A stretch of 24,000 nucleotides of DNA from an uncultured Candidatus Saccharibacteria bacterium (GTDB lineage: Bacteria > Patescibacteriota > Minisyncoccia > Portnoybacterales > GCA-002795985), in NCBI GenBank assembly GCA_964474765.1, contig CAYYTW010000012.1, positions 1 to 24,000 of the forward strand, in the 5' to 3' direction. The notes beneath the pieces are model-generated. The model searched no databases, had not been told where the DNA came from, and saw only the letters and a program-made list of their open reading frames with translations. Each line of letters begins with the position of its first letter. The first letter of the stretch is position 1. The position numbers and the translations under genes were made by a program. Shown in pieces: positions 6,059 through 18,595 of this stretch.

Positions 6059-7063
6059 ATGGAACAACCGCGCGTACAACGAACAACAGAAATGCCGGAA
6101 GATTTTAAGTTGATTAGAGAAAATCTTTTAAGAGAATTTTCTGGAAAGAACGTTGAGGGCATTAACACTAAAAGAGCGGAAGAATTTATCAAAAAAGAAG
6201 GAATGGAAGTTAAGCCTTATGTTATTATTGAAAAAGGGGATTTGCCGAAATTACAGGAGATTGTTGGTGATTCGGAAAGTTTTAAGAGACACATTGAAGA
6301 GGGCGGCTTGGGAGTTTATGCCGCAGGGATAGATCTGGCTATTGTCTTTAGGGATGGGAATTATGAAGGGATAAATGGAGAAATTTTTACGGAAAGGTTT
6401 CTCGTGCATGAATTGGCGCACGCGAGCAGCAAGCACGGGGTTTATACTTCCGAACCCGGGTTTAATGATTTTCCGACGGTCTTGAGAATCGGTTTTTGCT
6501 TGCGTTCAGAGCAAAAAAACGGTTCCTGGGGAGAATTAATCGAGGAAGGTTGGGCCGAAATGCAGAGTGCTAATTATTTCGCCCGGTATGCCACTAAAGA
6601 AGATAAGGAGCGGCTCGAATCGATTTTGAAGCTCGGGTCCCTAGGTGTGAATGATACTATTCCAACTGGTATGTTTCTTGATGTACCAATGGTAAATGTT
6701 GGCGTTGGCGAGCCCCTACCGCTTCCGCTAAAGTATATTTTTTTGAATCCCGAAGGAAGACTGTCTGTAGCGAGGGCGGCCTTTGCCGGTTATGCCTTGG
6801 AAATACTTTGCCAGAATAATCTGTCTTTGGCACCGGCAATGATTGAGGCGCGAAAATCCCTCGGGGGATTGAGGAAATTTGCCCGAACCTTGTGGGAAAC
6901 CTCACCCGATTTATATAAGACTTTGCAGACCAGTGATTATTCGGCAAGAGGGTTTCGCAAAAAGCTGGAGGTGGTTATTAATAAAGTCGGCGGCGGCGTT
7001 GAAAAAGTAATTAAGGCAAGAGGGCCGCTAAAAGATAAGTGGGATAAAATTTTAAAGAAATGA
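6059..7063 (+). CDS. Hypothetical cytoplasmic HExxH (gluzincin-like) protein
   Basis: 334-aa ORF with no signal peptide. It has FLVHELAHASSKHG and a downstream acidic EEGWAEM about 45 aa later that could supply a third zinc ligand. Its stop overlaps the mltG start (ATGA at 7060-7063). An alternative start at M12 (6092) is possible. Confidence 0.6.
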   Translation: MEQPRVQRTTEMPEDFKLIRENLLREFSGKNVEGINTKRAEEFIKKEGMEVKPYVIIEKGDLPKLQEIVGDSESFKRHIEEGGLGVYAAGIDLAIVFRDGNYEGINGEIFTERFLVHELAHASSKHGVYTSEPGFNDFPTVLRIGFCLRSEQKNGSWGELIEEGWAEMQSANYFARYATKEDKERLESILKLGSLGVNDTIPTGMFLDVPMVNVGVGEPLPLPLKYIFLNPEGRLSVARAAFAGYALEILCQNNLSLAPAMIEARKSLGGLRKFARTLWETSPDLYKTLQTSDYSARGFRKKLEVVINKVGGGVEKVIKARGPLKDKWDKILKK

Positions 7064-8273: not shown

Positions 8274-8720
8274 ATGAAATACAAAACTAAAATAATAATT
8301 ATAATATCTGTCATTGTTATTGGTTTAATCGGATTGGGTTTTTGGATTTTTGGGGGAGGGCAGAAAGTTACTTGGACTACGTCTGCGGGCGAACAACGAT
8401 CAATTGTGATGCCGAAAATTCCCGGGATGAAATTCATTTCCGAGGAAAGAGGCGAATGCTTTTGGCGCGCGACTTATGCCTATGAGTGGTATAAAGACCA
8501 GGATTTATCAATGCACATTAAAGATTTGTTGCAGTCTGTTTTTAGCCAACAGAATTGGGTATTGGAAAGCGATATAATGGAAGGAGGATTTCATGTTTTG
8601 CGTTTTTCTACAGAAAAATCCGGGTCGTATGAAACAATGGTGATGAAAATAATTTTTGAGCCGGGGCGGGGAACACTTTTTTCTCTTAATTATCAATGGC
8701 CGCCTTGTGCGGGCAAATAA
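8274..8720 (+). CDS. Hypothetical N-terminally anchored protein (148 aa)
   Basis: MKYKTK followed by the hydrophobic helix IIIIISVIVIGLIGLGFWIF, then a soluble domain with two Cys (C62 and C145). No family recognised. Confidence 0.55.
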   Translation: MKYKTKIIIIISVIVIGLIGLGFWIFGGGQKVTWTTSAGEQRSIVMPKIPGMKFISEERGECFWRATYAYEWYKDQDLSMHIKDLLQSVFSQQNWVLESDIMEGGFHVLRFSTEKSGSYETMVMKIIFEPGRGTLFSLNYQWPPCAGK

Positions 8721-8843
8721 AAATCGCATTAAGTTTTGATAAAATATAAAGATACTAATAGCTTAGATTTGGTAACGTGGGGCTTGCGGCGCGTCTGGCA
8801 ATATAACGAAGTTGTATTAGCCGGTGCGTCCAACCTCAAAAAC

Positions 8844-9725
8844 ATGAATAAAACACTTTTCATTCTTATTGGAACAGTAATTGTTTTTGGGATAGCCGCC
8901 TTTTTCTTATTTGCCAAAGAAGATCCGTTGGCAAGGCAAGCCAAAGAAGAAGTGCGGCAGGCCGAAGGAGTATATTCTAATTTCCAGAATACTGTAAACG
9001 CCATACCGATTTTAGAGCTTTCTTCTGACGTGAAGAATGATTTTAAAATACAAGCCGCCTATTTTGGTTTTATCGGATATCTTGAGCCAGACGTAGAGCC
9101 GCCTCCGGCTAGGGTGGTGATGCATGTAGGTAAACTAGCCGCGGCGCAAAACGCCAGGTCGTCTCCAAAGTTTATTGATGGTTTTGATCCAGAGAAGGAC
9201 TTCGGAGTTTTCTTAAAAGATATATTGATTGTGAAAGATATAACAAATGAAGATCTGGGATTTTTAGAAAAGATGACCAATGTTTTTGATGAGGCAGTCA
9301 AACATGCTAAGGCTAATGTCCCCGAACTCGTTCCCCCGACAATTGAAAGAAATAAGAAAACCGAGAAACATTTTTTGGAGTTTGAGAGAATTGACCAACG
9401 GCTCAAGGCATTAGCCGCTTCGCTAGACAGTTATTCCAGCGGCGAATTTCGGTCAAAGATGGAAAAATTGAAAGCCTCTAATGAAGTTTTTGGCGAGCTG
9501 GCTAATTATACTTATCAGCTTTATTCTGACAAGGGTTGGCCCTATAGTTTTGATATTGCGAAAACTTTTCCGGAGCTTGCCGGCGTGGAAGCGGCAGTTA
9601 AGCGATGTTCTCTATATAATCCTCGCACCGCGCCCACTGATTGTAAACCCACAGCTTTTATGCCGGGCCAATACCAGTCGTTGTTTCGTGAACTGACAAC
9701 AATCTATACGGGAGTTATTGAATAA
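8844..9725 (+). CDS. Hypothetical N-terminally anchored, largely helical protein (about 293 aa)
   Basis: I prefer the start at MNKTLFILIGTVIVFGIAAFFLFA (ATG 8844) over the ORF-track start at 8736, because the 36 upstream codons look non-coding. No family recognised. Confidence 0.55.
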   Translation: MNKTLFILIGTVIVFGIAAFFLFAKEDPLARQAKEEVRQAEGVYSNFQNTVNAIPILELSSDVKNDFKIQAAYFGFIGYLEPDVEPPPARVVMHVGKLAAAQNARSSPKFIDGFDPEKDFGVFLKDILIVKDITNEDLGFLEKMTNVFDEAVKHAKANVPELVPPTIERNKKTEKHFLEFERIDQRLKALAASLDSYSSGEFRSKMEKLKASNEVFGELANYTYQLYSDKGWPYSFDIAKTFPELAGVEAAVKRCSLYNPRTAPTDCKPTAFMPGQYQSLFRELTTIYTGVIE

Positions 9726-9821
9726 TTGTTTGAACCCAGCGTTATTATTGGTAGCATAGTTTTTTGTGGATAAGTTGAATCACGAAATAAAGGTCGAGGA
9801 TTTTCTCTGGTTTTTGTTTTA

Positions 9822-9830
9822 TGGTATAAT
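9822..9830 (+). promoter_or_regulatory. Extended -10 promoter element (TGgTATAAT) for the giant gene
   Basis: tggtataat is an exact TGnTATAAT. No good -35 is present. It lies 114 nt upstream of ATG 9944. Confidence 0.4.
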
Positions 9831-9864
9831 AAAAACAAGTTTCAAAGTAACTAAGTTATTTTGT

Positions 9865-9933
9865 GTCGTAATTTCCATTTTGACCGGTCTCGCAGAATTA
9901 TTTTGCGTAGCCGGCGGATGGAAATTCCGCGAC
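9865..9933 (+). promoter_or_regulatory. Structured 5-prime leader stem-loop of the giant gene
   Basis: aatttccat (9870-9878) pairs with atggaaatt (9918-9926), and gtcg (9865-9868) pairs with cgac (9930-9933). An inner helix pairs ccgg/cgca (9884-9894) with tgcg/ccgg (9904-9914). Confidence 0.4.
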
Positions 9934-9943
9934 GCGTGAAATT

Positions 9944-12900
9944 ATGTTTTCAAACAAATGTTTTTTTGTGTTTTTGATAGCATTTATTATAGCGCTATCT
10001 TTTGTTATTACGACGCAATGGGCGCCGGCGGCGGCGCAGGAAAATACAGGGCCGATTATTTCTGATATTCGAGTTGAAAATATTACGGGTTCGGGCGCGC
10101 AAATAAAATGGACAACTGATCAGCCTTCGGATTCTCGGGTTGCTTACGGAACGTCGCCTGGTCAATACGCTCTTTCTGATAATCGATGCGATGGAGGAGG
10201 CAATGTGACTAGTCATTGTGTTAACTTGATGAATCTTAACTATAATACTGTTTATTACTACAAAGTAAAATCGATGAATGCCATGGGTTTTGATAGCCAC
10301 AGCAACGAATTTCAATTTACTTCTGCCAGCGCTGCTAACGCGCCAGACACTCCGGGCAGCGTTCCGGCCGCGCCTTATAATTTAGTGGCCGATACTGACG
10401 GGGTAACCGTTAAATTAACTTGGTCAGACCCTTCGCTTAACAAAACAGAAACCAAAATTTATCGTCGTCAGTCGGATACGGCGTGGATGTATTTAAATAG
10501 TACGGGAATTGATATTACTTGGTACACTGATTCTTCTGTTCCTTCGGGCAATTATGAATATCAGGTTTTTTCTTGCAATTCTTACGGCTGTTCTAACGGG
10601 TCAAATATCGCCGCCATTAACATTGTCAGCGGGGGGGTGATCCAGGGGGAGGTGACCGACGGCGGGGGGGCAATCGTCGCTAATGCCCATGTTGAGGCGC
10701 AGGCAATTGATTCCAAAATGTCTTATTGGGGAAAAGCTGATAACCAGGGGCTGTATACTATTAATATTCCGGTCGGTACCTATAAAATAATCGCGCAGCC
10801 GCCGGAAGGAGCGAGTCTTCTTAGTTCTTTGCCAATCGAGATTACGATTGTCTCCGGCCAAACGCTGACGCAGAATTTAGTGTTGGCTAGCGCAAGCAAA
10901 ACTATTAGCGGCAAAGTGAGCCGGTCGGATGGCACAGCAGTGGCTAATGCCGGCATTCATGCTTATCAGTCGGCGTCGGGCAGGTCGGCTCAAGCCATCA
11001 CTGATGCTTCTGGTAATTACACTTTAGGGGTGGGTGGGGGAGCTTGGGAGGTGTCTGTTTTTTCTCAATCGCCATCAGATGACTGGAGATATAATCAACC
11101 GCCTCAAACATTGACTTTTGCCGTAGATGATGCGCCCGAAACAAAGACTTTAAATTTTACAGTTGTCACTGTTGACGCGGCTGTTAAGGGCAAAATATTA
11201 AAGCCCGACGGAACAGCGCCAGCGGCAAACGCGATTTCTATTAATTTGGACAACTCTCAAGGGTTTGCTTTTGGGGCTTCGGTTGACGCCACTGGTTCTT
11301 TCAGCATCGCTGTTCCGGCCGGAACCTATAATGTATTTATTCATAGCCAAGACCAGACGCTGATTGCTCCCGCGCTTTCCGCGATTACAGTATCTAGCGG
11401 CCAGACAAAAGACTTGGGGACAATTACTTTGGTCAAAGCAACTAAATCCATCAAGGGCAAGGTTGCTCGTCAGGATGGCCGGGCAGTAACTGACGCGGCA
11501 GTGGGCGCTTTTCACAAAGAAACTCAAAAATGGATAGAGACAAAAGTTGATGGCTCCGGCAATTACTCGCTTTTGGCAACGGGCGGTTCATGGGAAGTAT
11601 CCGTTCGCCCAATAACAGCGACTCCTAACTGGACATATGATAAGTCGTCTCAAATTGTTGTTTTTAACCAAGATACCACGGTTGAAGAAAAAATCATTAA
11701 TTTTACCGTTACCACTACCGACGTTTTTGTTAAAGGAAAAATTTTGCTTCCAGGCGGAACGATTCCGGCCGCAAACTCGGTGTTTGTTGATTTGCGAAGC
11801 GCGACTGGTTTCGGATTTGGCGGATCAATTGATTCAAGCGGCGCTTTTCGCATTTCTCTTACGGCTGGCACTTATAATATATTTATTCATAGCGAAAACC
11901 AGGATTTTTCGACTCCGGCGCTTTCTTCAATAACAGTAGTCTCCGGCGAGACAAAGGATCTTGGCGCAATATACCTTTTGGCAAGAGTAGATCATATTAA
12001 AGGCAGAGTGACTGATAAAAATGGGCAAGGAGTTGGGGGGATTATAATTGACGCTTGGATGCCGGAGGGATCTGATCATGCAATGACCAAAACTGATTCG
12101 ACGGGCAATTATGATTTATCTGTGATTCCTGGAAAATGGGAGGTTCAGGCCATGCCGGATGCGGCGTTTAATTTTTATAACCCTGAGCCGCCTAAACAAA
12201 TAAATGTGGTTTCGGGGACAGCGGCCGTGGTTAATTTTACTCTTTATCCGGCTGACGCAGGAATTTCTGGAACATTGGTAGACAAACAGGGGAATGTTCT
12301 GACGGAATTATATGGCTATGTTGGTCTTTCGCAGGAAGTAAAATTTGGTCCCGGATTGGGCGGTCCTATTGAACGGGGCAAATTTTTCTTCAAGGCGCCG
12401 GCTGGAACTTATGTTTTGTCTGTTTTTCTGCCTCCGGATTCGCTTTATACCATTGGTTTGCCGCAAACCGTGACTTTAGTTGCCGGCGAGACAATTTTTA
12501 CGCAGGTGGTTGTTGTTGCTAACACCTCAAAAATTACTGGAACGCTCAAAGATGAAGCTGGTAAGCCGGTAACCGGATTCGACGCTAAGGTTTTTGCCAC
12601 TACCCAAATAGGGGTTTGGCAGGGGGCTATTTTTGACAAAACTACAGGGCAATATACTTTAAGAGTAGCGGCTGGAATTTGGTATTTGGGGTATGATATT
12701 GATTCAACTTCTGGCTATATGTCGCTTCACAAGATGGATATTCAGGTTGTTATTGGCGAGGAGGAAACCATGCTTAAAGATCTAATTGTCATTAAGGCAA
12801 ATTCGGTTATTGCTGGTCGAATAACCGATCCTAACGGCATTGGTGTTTCTCGCGCTTTTGTCGGGGTAAGCAAAACGAGTTTTTCCGCGCTTACTCAAAA

Positions 12901-14593
12901 TCAAGAATTCAAAGATCCCATGGTAGCTGGCGCTGAAACGGATGGGAACGGTTTTTATCGGCTTAGTGTGCCGGCCGGATCTTATTTTATTAAAACGTTT
13001 GTCTCTCCCAAGCTCGGATTCATCAATTCGGAAGAAAAAAGCGTTTCTTTGACCGATGGTCAGACTTTGACCTTAAATTTGCAGTTGCGTTCGGCCAGCC
13101 TAAAGATTACCGGCAGGGCGCTATTGAATGATAGGCCGATTTCCGGCGCTTTTGTTTGGGGGTGGTCGCAGAAAGGCGGCTACCAGGAAACTTTTTCTCG
13201 TATAGACGGCGGTTTTCAGCTTAATGTTACGGCAAACGATGTTTGGACGATTGCCGCTGGAAGGGAAATTGAGGGAGTATTTTATAAATCAAGCGAAGTC
13301 GGTTTGCGGGTTGGCGATGCTGATTTGGCTCAGGATATTTATTTGGCCAAATTTGTTCAATTGCCGTCATCGGTGATTCAGACGGCTGAAGCAACCAAAC
13401 CGGCGGTGGTTGAGGTGATAAACGGGCCAACGGTGGTTGCTCCAGCGAATGCGGTATCTACCTCTGGTTCGATCAGTATTAGTATTGCTCCTGATAGCCG
13501 CGCTCCTTCTCAAGGAGAGATTAGGATTGTGGGCGTTGCTTACAATTTTGAAGCGCGCGATGCTAATGATCAACTTGTTCCTTTATTTAATACAGAAGTA
13601 GTTATCACCATTCCCTATAACACAAACGAAGTAACAAATCTTGGCACAAGGGAAGAAAATTTACTTATGGCTTTTTGGGACGAAACCAATGGAACTTGGA
13701 AAACAGTAGATAAGTCGGTAGTTAATCAGGATAAGAATTGTGTTACCGCCGCGGTTAATCATTTTACGCGCTTCGCGATTGTTTCGGCGGCCGATATTAT
13801 TCCGCCTTCGGCGCCGGCAAAAATAACGGCCATAGAGATAGCTCCTGGTCAGGTTAAATTAGGGTGGCAGAATCCGGTTCAGGATTTTCATCACGCCAAA
13901 ATTTATCGGTCAACCGAATCGGGAAAGTTGGGCGCGTTGATTTATAACGATTTGACAGGAACGAGCCGAATCGACTCGGGGCTTTCCGGCGAGAAAACTT
14001 ATTATTTCGTTGTTCGAGCAGTTGATCCGGCTGGAAATGAATCAACCAACCAAGACGCAATCGCGGTTTTGGTAGAAGTCGGCGGAGAACAAGTCGTTGC
14101 CGCCTCTTTGTTTAAGAGTTCTGGTTCAGCGATTTGGGTGGTCAATAATGGTTTGAAATCATTGATTCGGTCGGTCGCGGTTTTTAATGATTCCGGTTAT
14201 GATTGGGGCGCCGTGCAAACTATTTCCAATTCTCGATTAAACGCCATTCCTATTGCTAATTTGATTAAAACCGCTGATAGCCCCGATGTTTATCGGTTGG
14301 AAAAAAACTTCAAACGCAAGTTAGCTTCGATTGAGATTTTTGAATCGTATGGTTTAGATTGGAACAAGATTTCGATTGTCAGTCAGCCTATGATGGACTC
14401 CTTCTCTTACGCACCAATTTATCAAAAGAAGGGCGCAGGTGGTTTATACTGGAAAGACGCGAATAATGCTCTTCATCAATTCGTTTCAATGCCCGTCTTT
14501 GCTGCCTGTGGTTATAATGTTAGAGATTTGATTGCGGTTAATAAAATGGAATTTGGCAGTTTTGCGATCGGCGAGACGATTATCAAACCTTAA
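9944..14593 (+). CDS. Giant secreted surface protein: signal peptide, 2 FN3-like domains, about 10 CarboxypepD_reg-like beta-sandwich modules, a HFTRFA beta-sandwich domain, a third FN3-like domain and 3 C-terminal repeats
   Basis: 1549-aa uninterrupted ORF. The signal-like N-terminus ends AAAQ. FN3-like segments lie at about aa 36-127, 141-228 and 1287-1378. Recurrent modules follow G(K/R)V.D..G..V..A.V....TD..G.Y.L.V..G.Y.V. No LPXTG or PEP-CTERM motif is seen. Confidence 0.85.
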   Translation: MFSNKCFFVFLIAFIIALSFVITTQWAPAAAQENTGPIISDIRVENITGSGAQIKWTTDQPSDSRVAYGTSPGQYALSDNRCDGGGNVTSHCVNLMNLNYNTVYYYKVKSMNAMGFDSHSNEFQFTSASAANAPDTPGSVPAAPYNLVADTDGVTVKLTWSDPSLNKTETKIYRRQSDTAWMYLNSTGIDITWYTDSSVPSGNYEYQVFSCNSYGCSNGSNIAAINIVSGGVIQGEVTDGGGAIVANAHVEAQAIDSKMSYWGKADNQGLYTINIPVGTYKIIAQPPEGASLLSSLPIEITIVSGQTLTQNLVLASASKTISGKVSRSDGTAVANAGIHAYQSASGRSAQAITDASGNYTLGVGGGAWEVSVFSQSPSDDWRYNQPPQTLTFAVDDAPETKTLNFTVVTVDAAVKGKILKPDGTAPAANAISINLDNSQGFAFGASVDATGSFSIAVPAGTYNVFIHSQDQTLIAPALSAITVSSGQTKDLGTITLVKATKSIKGKVARQDGRAVTDAAVGAFHKETQKWIETKVDGSGNYSLLATGGSWEVSVRPITATPNWTYDKSSQIVVFNQDTTVEEKIINFTVTTTDVFVKGKILLPGGTIPAANSVFVDLRSATGFGFGGSIDSSGAFRISLTAGTYNIFIHSENQDFSTPALSSITVVSGETKDLGAIYLLARVDHIKGRVTDKNGQGVGGIIIDAWMPEGSDHAMTKTDSTGNYDLSVIPGKWEVQAMPDAAFNFYNPEPPKQINVVSGTAAVVNFTLYPADAGISGTLVDKQGNVLTELYGYVGLSQEVKFGPGLGGPIERGKFFFKAPAGTYVLSVFLPPDSLYTIGLPQTVTLVAGETIFTQVVVVANTSKITGTLKDEAGKPVTGFDAKVFATTQIGVWQGAIFDKTTGQYTLRVAAGIWYLGYDIDSTSGYMSLHKMDIQVVIGEEETMLKDLIVIKANSVIAGRITDPNGIGVSRAFVGVSKTSFSALTQNQEFKDPMVAGAETDGNGFYRLSVPAGSYFIKTFVSPKLGFINSEEKSVSLTDGQTLTLNLQLRSASLKITGRALLNDRPISGAFVWGWSQKGGYQETFSRIDGGFQLNVTANDVWTIAAGREIEGVFYKSSEVGLRVGDADLAQDIYLAKFVQLPSSVIQTAEATKPAVVEVINGPTVVAPANAVSTSGSISISIAPDSRAPSQGEIRIVGVAYNFEARDANDQLVPLFNTEVVITIPYNTNEVTNLGTREENLLMAFWDETNGTWKTVDKSVVNQDKNCVTAAVNHFTRFAIVSAADIIPPSAPAKITAIEIAPGQVKLGWQNPVQDFHHAKIYRSTESGKLGALIYNDLTGTSRIDSGLSGEKTYYFVVRAVDPAGNESTNQDAIAVLVEVGGEQVVAASLFKSSGSAIWVVNNGLKSLIRSVAVFNDSGYDWGAVQTISNSRLNAIPIANLIKTADSPDVYRLEKNFKRKLASIEIFESYGLDWNKISIVSQPMMDSFSYAPIYQKKGAGGLYWKDANNALHQFVSMPVFAACGYNVRDLIAVNKMEFGSFAIGETIIKP
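10898..11989 (+). repeat. Tandem duplication, 2 x 546 nt (2 x 182 aa), inside the giant gene
   Basis: aa 319-500 and aa 501-682 align without gaps. By eye about half the residues are identical, for example AGTYNVFIHSQDQ versus AGTYNIFIHSENQ. A third, more diverged unit follows. Confidence 0.8.
14123..14578 (+). repeat. Three C-terminal repeats of about 47-50 aa in the giant protein (putative wall/envelope-binding modules)
   Basis: The pattern V(Y/W)...N..(K)..I.S...F...GY.W..I..VS......P recurs at about aa 1394-1440, 1447-1492 and 1500-1545. Confidence 0.55.
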
Positions 14594-14619
14594 GGGGGCG
14601 TCTTCATCTTTTTCTCCAA

Positions 14620-15387
14620 ATGAACGGAGTGGCAAGTTATATTTACAAGACAGCCGTTGTTTTTATTGTCTTGGCTGGCGTTTGTGCGGGCGGGTATTTT
14701 GTTTTTATTCGGCGAGGCGATGATTTAGTTGAGGGTTTGCCGTCTTCGTCAGCGGTGCATTACTATAAAAATTCTACCCTTTCTTTATCGAAAATAAGAA
14801 TTAAAGCGGTTTATTTTGTGCCCAATGACAAAGGGGGCGACATTTTTTCTCAATGGCAATCTGCTTTGCCTCAAACCTTAGAAGATATCGTTCGATTCCA
14901 CAAAGTTATTTTTAAGGATTTGTCGCAAGTATCATTTGATATCTATCCACAGCCGATTATTGGCAGGGAGGACAGTAGTTTTTATGATACCGAAACGACT
15001 GGACGCGGCAATCCAGCGGCGTTGCGAAACGTCTATCGGGAGTTAGAGGCGCGGCTGTTAACTTACGGAGGGGATTTATTTGATGAAAGCTTTGTTGGGA
15101 GCGCAAGCGGCGAATATATTGTTTATTGCGTGTTATATGAAGGTGTGGGAGCGAGCGCCAGCGAAAATGTGATATTTCTCTCCAGTTCTTATTTGACCAA
15201 CGAAAGATATCAGGAAAGCGGCGCGACCATCTTTTATCATGAATTTGCTCATACTTTGGGCATCCCCGATCATTATGATGAGCAAGACGGCAAGTCCAGC
15301 TCTTTGGACATAATGGGCTTTGGCTTGGTGCGGCCTTTGGCATTTAATTATTTAGACGAAGAAATTTTAGAAGAGATGGGCTTGTGA
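14620..15387 (+). CDS. Membrane-anchored minimal metzincin-like zinc protease (snapalysin/M7-like motif)
   Basis: N-terminal TM helix AVVFIVLAGVCAGGYFVFI. The motif HEFAHTLGIPDHY (HExxHxxGxxD) is followed by SLDIMGFG, a candidate Met-turn. The ORF starts 26 nt after the giant gene. Confidence 0.7.
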   Translation: MNGVASYIYKTAVVFIVLAGVCAGGYFVFIRRGDDLVEGLPSSSAVHYYKNSTLSLSKIRIKAVYFVPNDKGGDIFSQWQSALPQTLEDIVRFHKVIFKDLSQVSFDIYPQPIIGREDSSFYDTETTGRGNPAALRNVYRELEARLLTYGGDLFDESFVGSASGEYIVYCVLYEGVGASASENVIFLSSSYLTNERYQESGATIFYHEFAHTLGIPDHYDEQDGKSSSLDIMGFGLVRPLAFNYLDEEILEEMGL

Positions 15388-15402
15388 TAGCCGCTATTAA
15401 TA

Positions 15403-17259
15403 TTGATGAACATGAACTTTAATATTTTTAGCCGATTGAAGATATTTTCTTTGATAAAAAGCCGTTTGGGTCGGCGATTTTTATTTTTCATGATATTGGT
15501 TTCCACTATCCCGATTATCCTAATGGGATTTGTGGCTATTAGTTTTTTGAACAGCAGCCACCGCCACAATATTGCCAGCTTAGAAAAACAAATTCTTTTG
15601 CAAAAAGAAGAGGAAATTCAAAATTTTGTTGAAGAAGTCGTAAGTATTTTTCAAATTAGCTTTAATCTGTCGATAGAACAACTTATTGTTGAAGAAGGAG
15701 GAAGAACGAAATATCTTATAAAAAAAGAGGACTTGGACAATGTATTGAATGGAATTGTTAAGGAAAATCAATGGATAGAAAGCGTTTATTTTGTGGATAT
15801 TTCCGGCAAGATCGCGTCTTTTGTCAATCGGCATGCGGGGGCGGAAATTTTAGATGAGGGCATAATTTCTAGCGATTTAGCGCGAGTTCCTTTTTGGAAT
15901 CGAGTGATAGGCGGCCAGGATTATTTTGGTCCGGTTAATTATACGCTCTCCGGTTCAATGATAATAATTGCCACGCCGGTACGGAACGTTAATGGTAAAA
16001 TTGTTGCCGCGCTTATCGGAGAGGTAAGTTTAAAACGCGTAGAGCAAATAATTGATAGGACGATGTTGGGCGTCAGTGGCTACAGTTTTCTGGTTGATGG
16101 CCGCGGAATTTTGTTTGCGCATTCTGTCCCCGGTTTGTTCCAAAAGCAACTCGATTTGTCTTTTCTTGTCAGGATTCAGAACATTTTGGCTGGTCAAGAA
16201 CAAACAGGATTAAAAAGGGAAGATAAATTCACCAGCGTTTTTGGCCAAGAGGTTATTGCGGCGGGCAAAAAAATACCTAACTTAAATTGGGGAATTTTTG
16301 TTGAATGGCCAACTTCTGATGCGGAAGCTATTATTGAGACGATTATGAAACAGATAGTAATATTTTCGTTTTTCAGCTTGGTTATTGTTTTGTTGGTCAT
16401 TTTTTTAATTATCAGCGAATTGATTTGGCCAATCAGAAAATTGGAGGAAGGGGTAAGAGCAATGGGTGCGGGCAATTTTGATTATAGGGTGAAAATTAAA
16501 ACTGGCGATGAACTGGAAGATTTGGGCGGCGCATTTAATTTGTTGGGCGAGGCATTAAAACAGGTGCAGACGTTAAGAAACGAATTTGTATTTATCGCCG
16601 CCCATGAACTTCGCGCGCCGGTTACGGTAATCAAAGGTTATCTTTCAATGATCGCGGGGGGAGCAATGGGTCGTGTGCCTGCACGAATCGAAGAGGCCTT
16701 GGTTCCGATTAATAAAGCCGGTGAGGGTCTTGGTAAGCTGGTTGATGATTTGCTCCAGGTGGCGCGTTCCGAAGCCGGCAAAATCGAAATTAAAGTTAAA
16801 CCGGTTGATCTAGTTGAAGAAACAAAAAGCGTTTTGGCAGAATTGAAAATTTTGGCCGATGAAAAATTCATAGAAACAATTTATAATCCCCAAAATGATT
16901 TGCCTAACATATTGGCCGATCAGGGAAAGCTGAGAGAAATACTTAAGAATTTAGTTGATAATGCGATTAAATACACGCTTGGTAAGGGGACAATCACTGT
17001 TAATCATGAAATAAAAGATAAAATGCTTATTACGCACGTTCGAGATACTGGTATTGGCATTACTAAAGAGAACCAGCTGAAATTATTTGAGAAATTTTCC
17101 CGCATTAAAGCCGAAGGGACAGAAAGTATTCCGGGTACCGGTTTGGGCCTCTGGATTATTAAACAGCTTGTGGAAAAAATGAATGGCAAAATTTGGGTGG
17201 TATCCGAAAGGGACAATGGTTCGACCTTTAGCTTTTCTTTGCCAATCGCCATTGCTTAA
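15403..17259 (+). CDS. Sensor histidine kinase (TM, Cache-like, TM, HAMP, HisKA, HATPase_c)
   Basis: Two TM helices flank an extracytoplasmic Cache-like domain of about 270 aa. HAMP is IWPIRKLEEGVRAMGAGNFDY. The H-box is FVFIAAHELRAPV, the N-box NLVDNAIKYT, G1 DTGIGI and G2 GTGLGLWI. Confidence 0.9.
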   Translation: MMNMNFNIFSRLKIFSLIKSRLGRRFLFFMILVSTIPIILMGFVAISFLNSSHRHNIASLEKQILLQKEEEIQNFVEEVVSIFQISFNLSIEQLIVEEGGRTKYLIKKEDLDNVLNGIVKENQWIESVYFVDISGKIASFVNRHAGAEILDEGIISSDLARVPFWNRVIGGQDYFGPVNYTLSGSMIIIATPVRNVNGKIVAALIGEVSLKRVEQIIDRTMLGVSGYSFLVDGRGILFAHSVPGLFQKQLDLSFLVRIQNILAGQEQTGLKREDKFTSVFGQEVIAAGKKIPNLNWGIFVEWPTSDAEAIIETIMKQIVIFSFFSLVIVLLVIFLIISELIWPIRKLEEGVRAMGAGNFDYRVKIKTGDELEDLGGAFNLLGEALKQVQTLRNEFVFIAAHELRAPVTVIKGYLSMIAGGAMGRVPARIEEALVPINKAGEGLGKLVDDLLQVARSEAGKIEIKVKPVDLVEETKSVLAELKILADEKFIETIYNPQNDLPNILADQGKLREILKNLVDNAIKYTLGKGTITVNHEIKDKMLITHVRDTGIGITKENQLKLFEKFSRIKAEGTESIPGTGLGLWIIKQLVEKMNGKIWVVSERDNGSTFSFSLPIAIA

Positions 17260-17262
17260 ATT

Positions 17263-17667
17263 ATGCCTTCTTCCCCAAAACATATTCTTATTATCGACGA
17301 CGACCCCTTAATTCAAAGGCTTTTCGGGGCTAAACTTTCGGCTAATGGTTTTGAGGTTTTGTATGCGGCTAATGGAGATGTCGGACGAGAAATGGCCCGA
17401 CGTTTTTTGCCAGATTTAATTCTTCTGGACTTTCGTCTGCCGGGTACGGATGGTTTTGTTGTCGCCAAACGACTAAAGGAAGAGCCGCGAACGGCGAATG
17501 TGCCAATAGTTTTTTTCACCAACGAAGATTTTTCGCTTGAAGCTGAAAAGGCGATAAAAGAGCTATGGGCGGTTGATTATATTCATAAAAGCATCGATCT
17601 TGATGAATTTATTGAGCGCGTAAAAAGGGTCATTTCATCTTTTAGAAAGAAACGAATTGTAAAATAA
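17263..17667 (+). CDS. Stand-alone response-regulator receiver (CheY-like, no output domain)
   Basis: ILIIDDD acidic pocket, phospho-acceptor DLILLDFRLPG, FFTN and a conserved K in IHKS. The ORF is 134 aa and starts 3 nt after the kinase stop. Confidence 0.9.
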   Translation: MPSSPKHILIIDDDPLIQRLFGAKLSANGFEVLYAANGDVGREMARRFLPDLILLDFRLPGTDGFVVAKRLKEEPRTANVPIVFFTNEDFSLEAEKAIKELWAVDYIHKSIDLDEFIERVKRVISSFRKKRIVK

Positions 17668-17677
17668 AAAAGTTTTA

Positions 17678-18595
17678 ATGGCCGCTGCCTTTAATGATTT
17701 TATATATGGAAGAATATGGAAGAATATGGAACAGAAGATTTCTAACAAAAAAATATTGATGATTATCGCCTTCCGCGATTTTAAAGACGAGGAGTATTTT
17801 ATCCCGCGGGAAATTTTGCAACGCCCATCCGTAGCCTTGCGCGAAGGAGGGGAGAAGGCGGGGGCGAAGATAACAGTTGCCAGCGATAAAAAGAGTGTAG
17901 CATTGGGCGTCAGCGGAGGAGAGGCGGTCGTGGATTTAACATTTAAAGAGGTTAATGTTGACGATTTCGACGCCGTTGTTTTCATCGGCGGGCCGGGGGC
18001 GCGGAAATACATTGAAAACTTGGAGTGTCATCGAATAGCGCGAGAGGCGGTTGAAAAAGACAAGATTTTGGCCGCTATCTGCATCGCGCCAGCCATTTTA
18101 GCCAAGGCCGGAGCGCTGAACGGAAAAAAAGCGACTGTCTGGTCGAGCCCGATGGATAAAACCGCAATAAAAATTTTAGAGGAAAACGGCGCGAAATATA
18201 TGAAAGAGCCAGTGGTGGTTGATGGAAAAATCATTACTGCCAATGGGCCAGAAGCGGCAGGGGAGTTTGGGGATAAGTTATTTGAAAGTGTTGACAGCCG
18301 GGCAATAAAACACATATACTACAGCTATATGGCAAAAAAGATTACTTTGGACAATTTGGCGGGAATGATAAAGTGTGGTTTTGATGGTATGGATAAAAGA
18401 TTTGGCGAAATAGAAAAGAGGATGTCTACTATGGAGGCGCGACTTTCTAATCTCGAGGTTGGTCAGGAAGACATAAAATTAAGGCTGGACAATGTTGCTT
18501 ATAGATTTGAAATTGTCGAATTGCAAAAACGCGTAGACTTTTTAGAAAAAATAATTTTGCCCAAAGCAAAAAAGAGCGATCCGGTGTTAAAATAA
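17678..18595 (+). CDS. DJ-1/PfpI family protein fused to a C-terminal coiled-coil module of about 90 aa
   Basis: DAVVFIGGPG, nucleophile elbow LAAICIAPAIL and VVDGKIITANGPEAA. From aa 218 the sequence is MAKKITLDNLAGMIKCGFDGMDKRFGEIEKRM followed by heptad-rich sequence. The start may be ATG 17726 (MEQKISNKKILMII) rather than 17678. Confidence 0.8.
   Translation: MAAAFNDFIYGRIWKNMEQKISNKKILMIIAFRDFKDEEYFIPREILQRPSVALREGGEKAGAKITVASDKKSVALGVSGGEAVVDLTFKEVNVDDFDAVVFIGGPGARKYIENLECHRIAREAVEKDKILAAICIAPAILAKAGALNGKKATVWSSPMDKTAIKILEENGAKYMKEPVVVDGKIITANGPEAAGEFGDKLFESVDSRAIKHIYYSYMAKKITLDNLAGMIKCGFDGMDKRFGEIEKRMSTMEARLSNLEVGQEDIKLRLDNVAYRFEIVELQKRVDFLEKIILPKAKKSDPVLK
17704..17731 (+). repeat. 10-nt tandem repeat (atatggaaga, 2.8 copies) at the 5-prime end of the DJ-1 gene
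   Basis: Perfect 10-nt periodicity from 17704 to 17731. It creates ATGs at 17706, 17716 and 17726, of which only 17726 is in the DJ-1 frame. Confidence 0.85.
18291..18320 (+). promoter_or_regulatory. Near-consensus sigma-70-type promoter inside the DJ-1 fusion ORF
   Basis: TTGACA (18291-18296), an 18-nt spacer and TATACT (18315-18320). The in-frame ATG at 18329 lies 8 nt after the -10. Confidence 0.35.

Follow-up and report, generated by a model that had tools for sequence, protein, structure and literature searches.

A (receiver)-giant-metzincin-Cache kinase-(receiver) gene cluster, in which the receiver gene may lie at either end, is a conserved operon of Patescibacteria. We arrived at it by following up an earlier note on a 24-kb stretch of DNA (hereafter the window) from an ultrasmall bacterium (CPR/Patescibacteria); that note had proposed a larger and less well-defined functional unit. 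The giant surface protein probably carries a self-cleavage site of the GAIN/MAIN type, as judged from its sequence and predicted structure.

Organization of the locus

The ORFs, membrane anchors, domains and short gaps named in the earlier note were all recovered by ORF listing, hydropathy scan and Pfam (Table 1). The hydropathy scan found one hydrophobic segment at the N terminus of each of the 148-, 293-, 1549- and 255-aa proteins, as expected for export or anchoring. The giant and protease genes are 26 nt apart, and 3 nt separate the kinase and receiver genes. The protease-kinase gap is 15 nt to TTG 15403 or 24 nt if the kinase starts at ATG 15412, as it may and as it does in the GenBank record. 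MltG (Pfam) is encoded just upstream within the window, and directly before the protease in another locus (L032).

The genes indeed share the + strand, but so do all large ORFs of the window; therefore, co-directionality does not delimit an island. Likewise, no terminator-like site lies between the genes from 9944 to 17667, although this absence carries no weight as evidence: a scan judged against shuffled sequence found 15 sites versus 15.3 expected, all within genes, and none after 17667 either.

The two small genes are separated from the giant gene by a 218-nt gap (9726-9943). The element TGGTATAAT in this gap is identical in locus L004, inside a block of ~150 nt in which conservation exceeds that of the neighbouring proteins, and is a candidate promoter of the giant-protease-kinase-receiver transcript. 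The hairpin predicted for the giant gene's 5′ leader (z = -6.5 versus shuffles) is kept in L004, where seven one-sided changes preserve pairing and none breaks it. It had no Rfam match, and such leaders are not general among the other loci.

Table 1. Features of the locus; residue numbers refer to the protein named.
Feature	Position (nt)	Strand	Residues	Basis or remark
148-aa ORF	8274..8720	+		
293-aa ORF	8844..9725	+		
Candidate extended -10 promoter element, TGGTATAAT	9822..9830	+		read from sequence
Long imperfect hairpin, 5′ leader of giant gene	9862..9936	+		MFE -42.7 kcal/mol
Giant ORF, 1549 aa	9944..14593	+		
Giant, predicted signal peptide			1-31	ends AAA↓Q, as in cleavable signal peptides
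Giant, two fn3 domains			40-228	Pfam
Giant, CarboxypepD_reg (transthyretin-like) beta-sandwich array			233 to about 1139	Pfam
Giant, putative GAIN/MAIN-like module			1144-1282	
Giant, predicted autoproteolytic site and stub peptide, then RFAIVSAADIIPPSAP	13760..13816	+		triad H1273-F1274-T1275
Giant, fn3 domain			1292-1380	
Giant, three weak ~50-aa repeats	14111..14590	+	1390-1549	repeat alignment
Protease ORF, 255 aa	14620..15387	+		
Protease, zinc site HEFAHTLGIPD	15238-15270	+	207-217	motif HExxHxxGxxD
Protease, candidate Met-turn DIMG			230-233	
Kinase ORF, 618 aa	15403..17259	+		
Receiver ORF, 134 aa	17263..17667	+		

Conservation of the gene order in CPR bacteria

We compared 68 non-redundant loci from many CPR lineages, whose record titles name Saccharibacteria, Parcubacteria, Uhr-, Doudna-, Jorgensen-, Brenner-, Wolfe-, Zambryski-, Gracili-, Lipton- and Sungbacteria. 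In all 59 assessable non-redundant loci, the gene directly after that of the protease encodes a Cache-HAMP histidine kinase. The gene directly before it encodes a giant homolog in 33 of 39 cases, and such a homolog is found within three genes in 38 of 39. Gaps within the unit are often -4 to +20 nt, and the protease and kinase genes overlap (-4 nt) in 13/59 loci. Distant CPR lineages share this order but differ in the flanking genes, and among the 833 ORFs at the loci only four families recur, namely the giant, the protease, the kinase and the receiver. These results bear out the view that the giant, the anchored protease, the Cache kinase and the receiver-only regulator belong together as a single conserved unit, and in the literature searched we found no description of a system with this composition, as the earlier note had supposed.

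The receiver is the variable member: roughly half of the loci have it after the kinase or ahead of the giant, and about half have none beside the unit. In about 15 loci the kinase is directly followed by an ortholog of 58-75% identity, and in about 8 the giant is directly preceded by a member of a second class, of about 40% identity. Receivers that adjoin the unit lack an output domain in every case (25 of 26 are shorter than 170 aa).

By contrast, the 148- and 293-aa proteins, which had been counted in the unit, are lineage-specific neighbours outside it. Transmembrane (TM) segments were located by hydropathy scan at residues 1-30 and near residues 5-30, respectively. The former had no match in Pfam, NCBIfam or PDB, and the latter no Pfam family and no match in a PDB profile search. 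The mechanical ORF of the 293-aa protein opens at TTG 8736, while homologs of 287-294 aa support the ATG 8844 start chosen earlier. A homolog of the 148-aa protein was found in L004 alone (77% identity) and none in L009 or L011-L093; the 293-aa family is small, with 9 members found, and those in L009 and L010 occur without protease or kinase. Neither protein is present in any of the 83 loci L011-L093, or in the 66 non-redundant loci other than L004.

The protease, kinase and receiver

Rather than a novel fold, the 255-aa protein is, by its motif and predicted structure, a minimal metzincin, anchored in the membrane by a TM segment at about residues 10-32. Residues H207, E208, H211, G214 and D217 are invariant, and Pfam reported an HExxH match of M6/M7 type. 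The top Foldseek matches of the AF2 model (pLDDT 76) were adamalysin, ADAM, ADAMTS and fragilysin (probability 1.0, TM 0.4-0.5). The zinc motif aligns to snapalysin (M7) HETGHVLGLPDHY residue for residue over HExxHxxGxxD(H)Y, and immune inhibitor A (M6) is matched at 22.3 bits in Pfam and weakly by the NCBIfam M6 domain (27.8 versus a cut-off of 110.8). These matches span only ~35 residues at the active site, and the 255-aa protease differs from M6/M7 enzymes in its N-terminal anchor and in belonging to a separate family confined to CPR bacteria, with 267 representatives at 50% identity and lengths of 230-315 aa. An N-terminal TM segment was found in 78/78 family members and HExxHxxGxxD in 74/78.

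The kinase consists of TM1, an extracellular dCache_1 domain (residues 64-301), TM2, HAMP, HisKA and HATPase_c, as defined by Pfam and hydropathy scan. Pfam found no cytoplasmic sensor domain besides HAMP, HisKA and the ATPase domain. Homologs align over the full length, including the sensor domain, at 31-44% identity, and the Cache domain has a mean identity of 35.6% across 53 kinases. The best NCBIfam match of the kinase core is WalK, at 191 bits versus a cut-off of 725 bits. In the receiver, Response_reg spans residues 8-121 with no other domain (Pfam), and the canonical D12/D13, D56, T86 and K109 can be read from the sequence. All three core proteins have outward-facing parts, i.e. the signal peptide of the giant, the N-terminal TM segment of the protease and the Cache domain between the two TM segments of the kinase.

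A putative self-cleavage site in the giant

Giant orthologs range from ~870 to 2200 aa; 38 of the 39 assessable loci have one upstream of the protease. The window's giant contains at least seven CarboxypepD_reg repeats in addition to fn3 (Pfam). Its C-terminal domain had no Pfam match; most orthologs carry PG_binding_1 at this position, and this positional equivalence suggests that the domain may bind the cell wall.

The most conserved element of the giants is H-[L/F]-T-R-F-A...A-D-x-x-P-P. The H-x-T triad was found in 39/39 giants, and all 36 aligned sequences share its H and T as well as F1277, D1284, P1288 and P1291; residues 1271-1291 have 71.5% mean pairwise identity versus 34-45% elsewhere in the giant. 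In the AF2 model of residues 1040-1400 (mean pLDDT 84.5), the triad is located in the turn between the last two strands of a predicted beta-sandwich. An H-x-T in the turn before the last beta-sandwich strand is the signature of GAIN/MAIN autoproteolytic domains, and the giant would thus be cut between F1274 and T1275 (nt 13763-13768). The best PDB profile match of the site was the GPS motif of ADGRF1, in register (E=0.022). Pfam GPS matched the window's giant at E=0.012, 5/35 members and, in a second set, 0/10; these GPS matches are marginal (E about 0.01-0.04). A homologous module with an aligned HFT was found in an SpvB/TcaC toxin protein. The giant in L009 has the same stub with no adjacent protease or kinase. 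The earlier note, which had missed the H-x-T motif, spoke of surface remodelling; with this motif, the likely mechanism shifts to autoproteolysis-based signalling or release.

Adhesion GPCRs resemble the giant in the motif itself (...V.HLTRFAVV... here versus ...C.C.HLT.FAVL..., cleaved HL↓T and with a tethered agonist), in the position of the site before the last strand and after a large adhesive ectodomain, and in the post-cleavage peptide being most conserved. However, the giant lacks the GPS cysteines, the AF2 model has no helical GAIN_A subdomain, and no membrane receptor is fused to the stub; the candidate for receiving the signal is a separate histidine kinase. Homology to GAIN/GPS is not proven, as the E-values are marginal.

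Another close parallel is offered by the MAIN (microbial GAIN-like) domain surface proteins such as Bacillus subtilis YfkN, for which HF↓S self-cleavage was shown experimentally and fn3, CarboxypepD_reg and SpvB are listed as partner domains (Brogan and Rudner, bioRxiv 10.64898/2026.05.12.724683). Both are large proteins with a signal peptide, adhesion or enzymatic domains, a beta-sandwich with H-x-(S/T) in the last beta-turn and a wall anchor, which in the giant is presumptive. The MAIN proteins studied came from RefSeq, mostly from Bacillota, with sortase or SLH anchors and no known signalling partner, and the preprint mentions no kinase, metalloprotease partner or Patescibacteria (bioRxiv 10.64898/2026.05.12.724683). 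The module described here differs in occurring in CPR bacteria, in having PG_binding_1 or a novel repeat domain as its putative anchor, and in the fixed position of the giant gene beside the metzincin and Cache kinase genes.

Discussion

We tentatively favour, as a possible explanation, that the operon is a sensor of surface contact or mechanical force made of a self-cleaved giant, a sheddase, a Cache kinase and a stand-alone receiver. The giant would be secreted by means of its signal peptide, and its C-terminal domain would keep it on the cell wall. The GAIN/MAIN-like beta-sandwich would cut its own chain, leaving the adhesive ectodomain of ~135 kDa, with its fn3 and transthyretin-like repeats, non-covalently on the wall-bound stub. 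Binding to a partner cell or surface would allow the ectodomain to be pulled off and the invariant stub, T-R-F-A-I-V-x-A-A-D-x-x-P-P, to be exposed, which may then serve as substrate of the anchored metzincin and/or as ligand of the extracellular Cache domain. The kinase would phosphorylate the stand-alone receiver, which may act via protein-protein contacts and not via transcription. Release-only MAIN proteins typically show conservation around the cleavage site as well, so that it is no proof of partner recognition. Against a sensing module stand the same-stub giant of L009, the absence of the receiver from about half of the loci and the marginal GPS matches.

Notch is a pre-cleaved heterodimer whose force-exposed S2 site is cut by ADAM10, a membrane-anchored metzincin. 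Like Notch and the RsgI SEAL-domain/RasP system, the proposed sensor would combine a self- or pre-cleaved extracellular domain held non-covalently with a second, membrane-anchored protease and transmembrane signalling, and the best fold matches of the 255-aa protein are the adamalysin and ADAM catalytic domains. The unit has neither an intramembrane protease nor a sigma/anti-sigma pair, its transducer being a two-component kinase; the likeness is an analogy only, with any homology limited to the metzincin fold.

The same linkage and topology could also serve regulated shedding by inside-out signalling, which we consider rather unlikely. Here, the kinase would respond to a cue from the environment or the cell by holding or freeing the neighbouring protease through its HAMP and Cache domains, and cleavage of the wall-proximal stub would detach the cell from its partner, with the receiver tuning the kinase or acting as a phosphate sink. 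The precedent is Pseudomonas LapA/LapG/LapD, in which LapD signals inside-out via a HAMP domain and its periplasmic domain captures the protease LapG. Lap likewise pairs a giant repeat adhesin with a dedicated protease that cuts its cell-proximal end, and this protease is controlled by the outward-facing domain of a membrane receptor with a HAMP domain. However, LapG belongs to the cysteine proteases, LapD is a receptor for c-di-GMP, and LapA is a T1SS substrate in a diderm bacterium; Pfam and NCBIfam detected no Lap families here, and no Lap protein is homologous to proteins of the unit. The frequent 4-nt overlap of the protease and kinase genes suggests a stoichiometric pair, and release, not signalling, is what the MAIN preprint proposes (bioRxiv 10.64898/2026.05.12.724683). 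If the giant already cleaves itself, release needs no second protease, and an internal cue has no obvious entry point into this kinase. Outside-in signalling would be the simpler reading, because the kinase lacks a cytoplasmic sensor and an extracellular enzyme is hard to control from a receiver in the cytoplasm.

We regard as unlikely that the genes are only loosely coupled in function and co-transcribed since all act in the envelope. The giant would then be a structural protein of the wall or of an S-layer-like kind, and the metzincin would serve as a maturase or as a housekeeping protease of the envelope. The kinase and receiver would be a general WalK-like envelope sensor of small molecules, and the H-x-T motif would be structural or merely permissive for passive release. 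Consistent with this, dCache_1 domains usually bind small ligands, WalK is the best match of the kinase core, MltG lies close by in the window and L032, and motif-bearing giants also occur away from protease and kinase. WalK/WalR with WalH/WalI is similar in that an extracellular Cache/PAS-type kinase is encoded beside single-pass modulating membrane proteins; in the unit, however, a protease takes the place of the accessory protein, the regulator lacks a DNA-binding domain and the WalK score is far under the cut-off. The three-gene linkage is nearly perfect across phyla amid unrelated flanks, overlaps of start and stop codons are common and none of the other envelope genes recurs, which argues for a specific functional dependence.

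The seven-gene island spanning 8274-17667, with the 148- and 293-aa anchored proteins in the same regulated attachment module, is very improbable and already largely refuted by synteny: all six proteins do occur in the same order in L004 (64-77% identity) between different flanking genes, but L004 is a close relative, the small proteins are otherwise absent or found apart from the trio, and the gap before the giant holds a conserved promoter-like element and a leader.

If the operon does sense contact or force, the linkage of giant, metzincin and kinase would suggest a previously undescribed bacterial way of surface-contact sensing.

Conservation of gene order across Patescibacteria

The window matches contig JACQYV010000052.1 of a Candidatus Falkowbacteria MAG (GCA_016208025.1), in keeping with the reduced, partner-dependent lifestyle suspected in the earlier note. 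All of the ORFs named in the earlier note are present in the window. A hydropathy scan found the single N-terminal hydrophobic segment ascribed to each of the 148-, 293-, 1549- and 255-aa proteins, and it placed two transmembrane segments in the histidine kinase. The gaps between the genes for the 1549-aa surface protein (giant), the 255-aa protease, the kinase and the receiver-only protein are 26, 15 and 3 nt, as previously described, and the second becomes 24 nt if the kinase begins at ATG 15412. Two other arguments for a co-directional island lost their force. Orientation carries no weight because all large ORFs of the 24 kb are on the + strand, and the apparent lack of terminators is powerless because terminator-like sites are no commoner than in shuffled sequences and all lie within genes. 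Apart from the last 1-kb bin, where it is zero, GC skew is positive throughout the window, and the cumulative skew never drops over the 24 kb; strand bias and skew are consistent with a long co-oriented gene stretch on the leading strand. Scans of the window for tRNAs and Rfam families gave no matches.

A word-indexed search with the 255-aa protein returned only 10 homologues. Pattern scans derived from the protease alignment gave 34 loci from species-representative genomes and another 49 from metagenomes, and an exhaustive profile search collected 267 representatives of the family at 50% identity, nearly all of 230-315 aa. Every named record among the protease loci belongs to the Patescibacteria (CPR), including Saccharibacteria, Parcubacteria, Uhr-, Doudna-, Jorgensen-, Brenner-, Wolfe-, Zambryski-, Gracili-, Lipton- and Sungbacteria. 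All loci were searched by tblastn with the window proteins, and their 833 ORFs were grouped by all-against-all clustering. Four families alone were recurrent, namely the protease (85 loci), the kinase (80), the giant (62) and the receiver (25), and any other ORF family occurred in at most eight loci.

Duplicates were removed, and 68 loci were kept for linkage counts. In this non-redundant set, the giant-protease-kinase order, which the earlier note had assigned to a single unit, is conserved across CPR lineages with flanks that are unrelated between lineages. The kinase gene directly follows the protease gene in 59/59 assessable loci. The giant gene directly precedes the protease gene in 33 of 39 loci and lies within three genes of it in 38, being absent only from L052. 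Gaps between the core genes are mostly -4 to +20 nt, many of them 4-nt overlaps, and the linkage is about as tight as that of genes encoding the subunits of one complex. Giant and protease are occasionally separated by small ORFs of 77-145 aa (L018, L020, L022, L038 and L007). In L007, a PG_binding_1 fragment overlaps the end of the giant ORF and probably represents the C-terminus of the giant itself, detached by a frameshift or an assembly error.

Coordinates and loci of the features discussed in the text
Feature	Sequence	Position	Strand	Remarks
334-aa ORF	window	6059-7063		
148-aa protein	window	8274-8720	+	
293-aa protein	window	8844-9725	+	
Extended -10 box	window	9822-9830		
Leader hairpin	window	9862-9936		MFE -42.7 kcal/mol, z -6.5; seven one-sided changes between window and L004 keep pairing
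Giant, 1549 aa	window	9944-14593	+	
Protease, 255 aa	window	14620-15387	+	
Cache-HAMP histidine kinase, 618 aa	window	15403-17259	+	
Receiver, 134 aa	window	17263-17667	+	
DJ-1/PfpI-family gene	window	17678-18595		
PG_binding_1 fragment	L007	3133-3528		
Paralogous giant of more than 2000 aa	L009	12956-19232	-	
Paralogous giant of more than 1700 aa	L059	15663-20855		
Locus of the SpvB/TcaC N-terminal domain protein	L094 (NZ_CP080777.1)	62654-63577		
Receiver directly before giant	L017, L021, L028, L033, L042, L057, L059			
Receiver directly after kinase	L004, L018, L020, L029, L030, L032, L044, L053, L061, L066, L069, L070, L076, L082, L083			

Upstream and downstream neighbors

The 148- and 293-aa proteins had also been counted as members of the unit, which did not hold. 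All six proteins recur together, at 64-77% identity and between different flanks, only in L004, a close relative of the window, and a gap of 218 nt separates the 293-aa gene from the giant. The 293-aa family is also found in L009 and L010, there without protease or kinase and without a counterpart of the 148-aa protein; a regular partnership of the two small proteins elsewhere was thus rejected. Both proteins are absent from all of L011-L093, and neither has a match in Pfam, NCBIfam or the PDB, even with a nine-member profile. We conclude that their genes are lineage-specific neighbors outside the transcription unit.

The 218-nt gap carries a promoter-like extended -10 box, TGGTATAAT. From this and the synteny data, we conclude that the transcription unit begins at the giant or at the receiver. 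The non-coding region in front of the giant (window 9800-9943, L004 4520-4648) is ~85-90% identical between the two loci, compared with ~70-75% for the flanking proteins, and contains, besides the -10 box, a long hairpin that has no match in Rfam. At most other giants, 100-460 nt of non-coding DNA lies upstream unless a receiver gene is located 2-23 nt in front. A structured 5′ leader as a general feature of the operon was rejected, since a strong hairpin occurs only in the window and L004.

Downstream of the receiver, the DJ-1/PfpI-family gene starts after 10 nt, or after 58 nt with the GenBank start at 17726, and its product carries ~100 additional C-terminal residues, which give a weak coiled-coil-like match to FlaC. 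No terminator was found between the operon and this gene, and no counterpart of the gene follows the unit in L004 or the other loci. Elsewhere in the window, the 334-aa ORF, which runs 4 nt into the start of the MltG gene, contains the HExxH motif VHELAHA, has neither a Pfam or NCBIfam family nor a transmembrane segment, and may encode a second metallopeptidase-like protein.

The anchored protease represents a distinct metzincin family

In the 255-aa protein, noted previously as an HExxH protease, Pfam gave a short HExxH match of M6/M7 type. The zinc site HExxHxxGxxD reads HEFAHTLGIPDHYD at residues 207-217, aligns with HETGHVLGLPDHY of snapalysin, and is present as a motif in 74 of the 78 family members; H207, E208, H211, G214 and D217 are invariant in a 10-member alignment. 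A candidate Met-turn follows, in which D230, I231 and G233 are invariant and M232 is found in at least 90%, in a region where the AF2 pLDDT is only 50-64. All 78 members have an N-terminal membrane anchor. When the AF2 model (pLDDT 76) was compared with the PDB by Foldseek, the top 50 matches were adamalysins, ADAM, ADAMTS and fragilysin (probability 0.98-1.0, TM 0.36-0.53), pointing to a moderate likeness of the predicted fold to metzincin catalytic domains.

Membership in the M6 (InhA) or M7 (snapalysin) families was rejected, since no full-length match attains the curated cut-offs and the active-site motif alone is shared. Pfam M6 scored 22.3 bits over 31 residues only and Pfam M7 15.6 against a cut-off of 25, while in NCBIfam the M6 domain scored 27.8 against 110.8 and snapalysin 13.1 against 300. 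With a metzincin-like fold and motif and no full-length M6 or M7 match, the protease constitutes a distinct minimal metzincin family, apparently restricted to CPR.

A conserved H-x-T module in the giant

The giant consists of a signal peptide, an array of fn3 and CarboxypepD_reg repeats (at least seven of the latter in Pfam), a module described below, another fn3 domain and, lastly, a C-terminal domain (PG_binding_1 in most orthologues). We aligned the last 560 residues of 36 non-redundant giants. Conservation peaks outside the repeats, in the short segment V-x-H-[L/F]-T-R-F-A-[IL]-[VI]-A-A-A-D-x-x-P-P-x-x-P; residues 1271-1291 show 71.5% mean pairwise identity compared with 34-45% in each other segment, and H1273, T1275, F1277, D1284, P1288 and P1291 are invariant in 36/36 sequences. 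The H-x-T triad (H1273-F1274-T1275 in the window) is present in all 39 giants, with L or F as its middle residue. An AF2 model of residues 1040-1400 (mean pLDDT 84.5) comprises three beta domains, and the triad (H234-F235-T236 of the model) is predicted to occupy a tight turn between strands 227-232 and 237-243, the last two of the middle sandwich, with local pLDDT of ~96.

The H-[L/F]-T motif corresponds to the GPS cleavage-site pattern of GAIN domains (HL|T). The best PDB match of the module profile was adhesion GPCR F1 (ADGRF1) with its HLT in register (E=0.022). Pfam GPS scored 16.6 bits on the window giant (cut-off 22.5, E=0.012) and matched 5 of 35 members (best E 2.2e-5) and none of ten further members, so that the GPS assignment is marginal at the sequence level. 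Foldseek with the three-domain model returned fn3 strings. The same arrangement was described in 2026 for microbial GAIN_B-like sandwiches (MAIN), which self-cleave at H-x-(S/T), as shown for Bacillus subtilis YfkN at HF|S, which superposes on GAIN_B with a reported TM of about 0.6 (Brogan and Rudner, bioRxiv 10.64898/2026.05.12.724683). MAIN proteins are built of a signal peptide, adhesion or enzymatic domains, MAIN and a wall anchor, and SpvB, fn3 and CarboxypepD_reg are among their tabulated partner domains (bioRxiv 10.64898/2026.05.12.724683). The window giant has this architecture, and its module probably belongs to the MAIN/GAIN_B group (ECOD ZU5/Nup98-C/GAIN-B).

Outside CPR, the sole family match in the plasmid collection is a very large alphaproteobacterial protein with an SpvB/TcaC N-terminal domain, encoded on a plasmid of Aliiroseovarius crassostreae. 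Its ~125-aa module is homologous to that of the giant (27% identity, HFT on HFT), and this SpvB/TcaC toxin protein is the nearest annotated non-CPR relative. Paralogous giants in L009 and L059 have the same HLTRFALVSAADI.PP stub, the peptide after the predicted cleavage site, and no adjoining protease or kinase; that of L009 lies ~4 kb from the 293-aa homologue and near a 490-aa PG_binding_1 protein.

The Cache kinase and the receiver-only regulator

The domain assignments made previously were borne out by Pfam: dCache_1-HAMP-HisKA-HATPase_c in the kinase, all above cut-offs, and Response_reg alone in the 134-aa protein. No cytoplasmic sensor domain was found in the kinase with Pfam. The H-box, HELRAP in the window, is present in 60 of 63 family members. 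The sensor domain is alignable across all 53 kinases at 35.6% mean identity, the kinase core reaching 55-58%, and conservation of the sensor would be compatible with a shared ligand. Identity with WalK/WalR was rejected, as the kinase scored 191 bits against the 725-bit WalK cut-off and the regulator has no output domain.

The receiver retains D12/D13, D56, T86 and K109. With a single exception, the 26 receivers have fewer than 170 aa and therefore lack an output domain. The receiver gene directly follows the kinase in about 15 loci (58-75% identity to the window receiver) and directly precedes the giant in about 8 (about 40% identity); it is not adjacent in the remaining loci. These alternative positions suggest either two receiver lineages or relocation during CPR evolution. 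The 3-nt gap, together with the recurrence in about 15 loci, suggests that the kinase and its adjoining receiver may be cognate.

In the genetically tractable Saccharibacterium Southlakia epibionticum, SEML1_0245-0247 encode a PsbP/Mog1p-like protein, a short kinase and a receiver-only regulator of 121 aa (PMC10633639, Tables S1 and S2), and these genes were scored as essential or growth-defective by Tn-seq in the only CPR bacterium with such data (PMC10633639). They were rejected as a counterpart of the operon: the kinase has no Cache domain, and the proteome table of this species contains no Cache match. Because it is a different system, its Tn-seq essentiality does not apply here. The pairing of kinases with receivers that lack an output may be widespread and important among CPR.

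Possible signaling by the operon

The giant, the protease and the kinase sensor all act outside the membrane. We favor signaling from the outside to the inside, because the kinase has no cytoplasmic sensor and a cytoplasmic receiver has no obvious hold on an extracellular enzyme. In the proposed scheme, the giant would self-cleave and remain assembled on the wall, until binding and pulling strip its ectodomain. The anchored metzincin would then trim the bared invariant stub, the Cache domain would read it, or both, and the kinase would phosphorylate the stand-alone receiver. The operon could tentatively be a CPR counterpart of adhesion-GPCR/Notch mechanotransduction, in which host contact strips the self-cleaved giant, the ADAM-like metzincin trims the stub, the Cache domain of the kinase reads the peptide or its loss, and the receiver controls attachment, pili or division; in this specific form we regard the scheme as rather unlikely. 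Against the favored scheme, a paralogous giant with the same stub has no adjoining protease or kinase (L009), about half of the units have no adjoining receiver, and conservation of the cleavage site is also typical of release-only MAIN proteins.

The main rival is regulated shedding of the Lap type, in which the signal would run from the inside to the outside. The likeness to LapA/LapG/LapD is functional only, and neither a LapG-type cysteine protease, a LapD GGDEF-EAL receptor nor an RTX adhesin was found in the window with Pfam and NCBIfam. A loosely coupled envelope operon is a weaker rival.

Functionally, adhesion GPCRs, Notch with ADAM10, RsgI-SEAL with RasP, and LapADG come closest, and no one of them is homologous as a system. 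The MAIN survey was based on RefSeq and mentions no Patescibacteria, kinase or partner protease, and according to its authors no signaling mechanism has been tied to the wall-bound fragment or stub (bioRxiv 10.64898/2026.05.12.724683). Searches of the literature library covered, CPR genetics papers included, found no earlier account of this CPR cluster. The components are of known kinds, namely a MAIN-type surface protein, a metzincin and a two-component system, and their fixed combination is described in none of these sources.

Patescibacteria account for much of bacterial diversity, and their cells are believed to be attached to those of other organisms. Across dozens of distant CPR lineages, the operon ties a MAIN-type giant to a sensor kinase and an anchored metzincin. 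Its four genes are all amenable to heterologous expression and provide a concrete test of whether microbial GAIN-like domains signal. If the proposed scheme is right, force-gated autoproteolytic signaling of the aGPCR/Notch/SEA type could not be regarded as an invention of eukaryotes, and the operon would give microbial GAIN-like domains their first signaling role and episymbionts a sensor of host contact. It would also flag host-contact genes in uncultured episymbionts. Even on the most conservative reading, the locus yields a new metzincin family, apparently confined to CPR, and an envelope operon that is strongly conserved.
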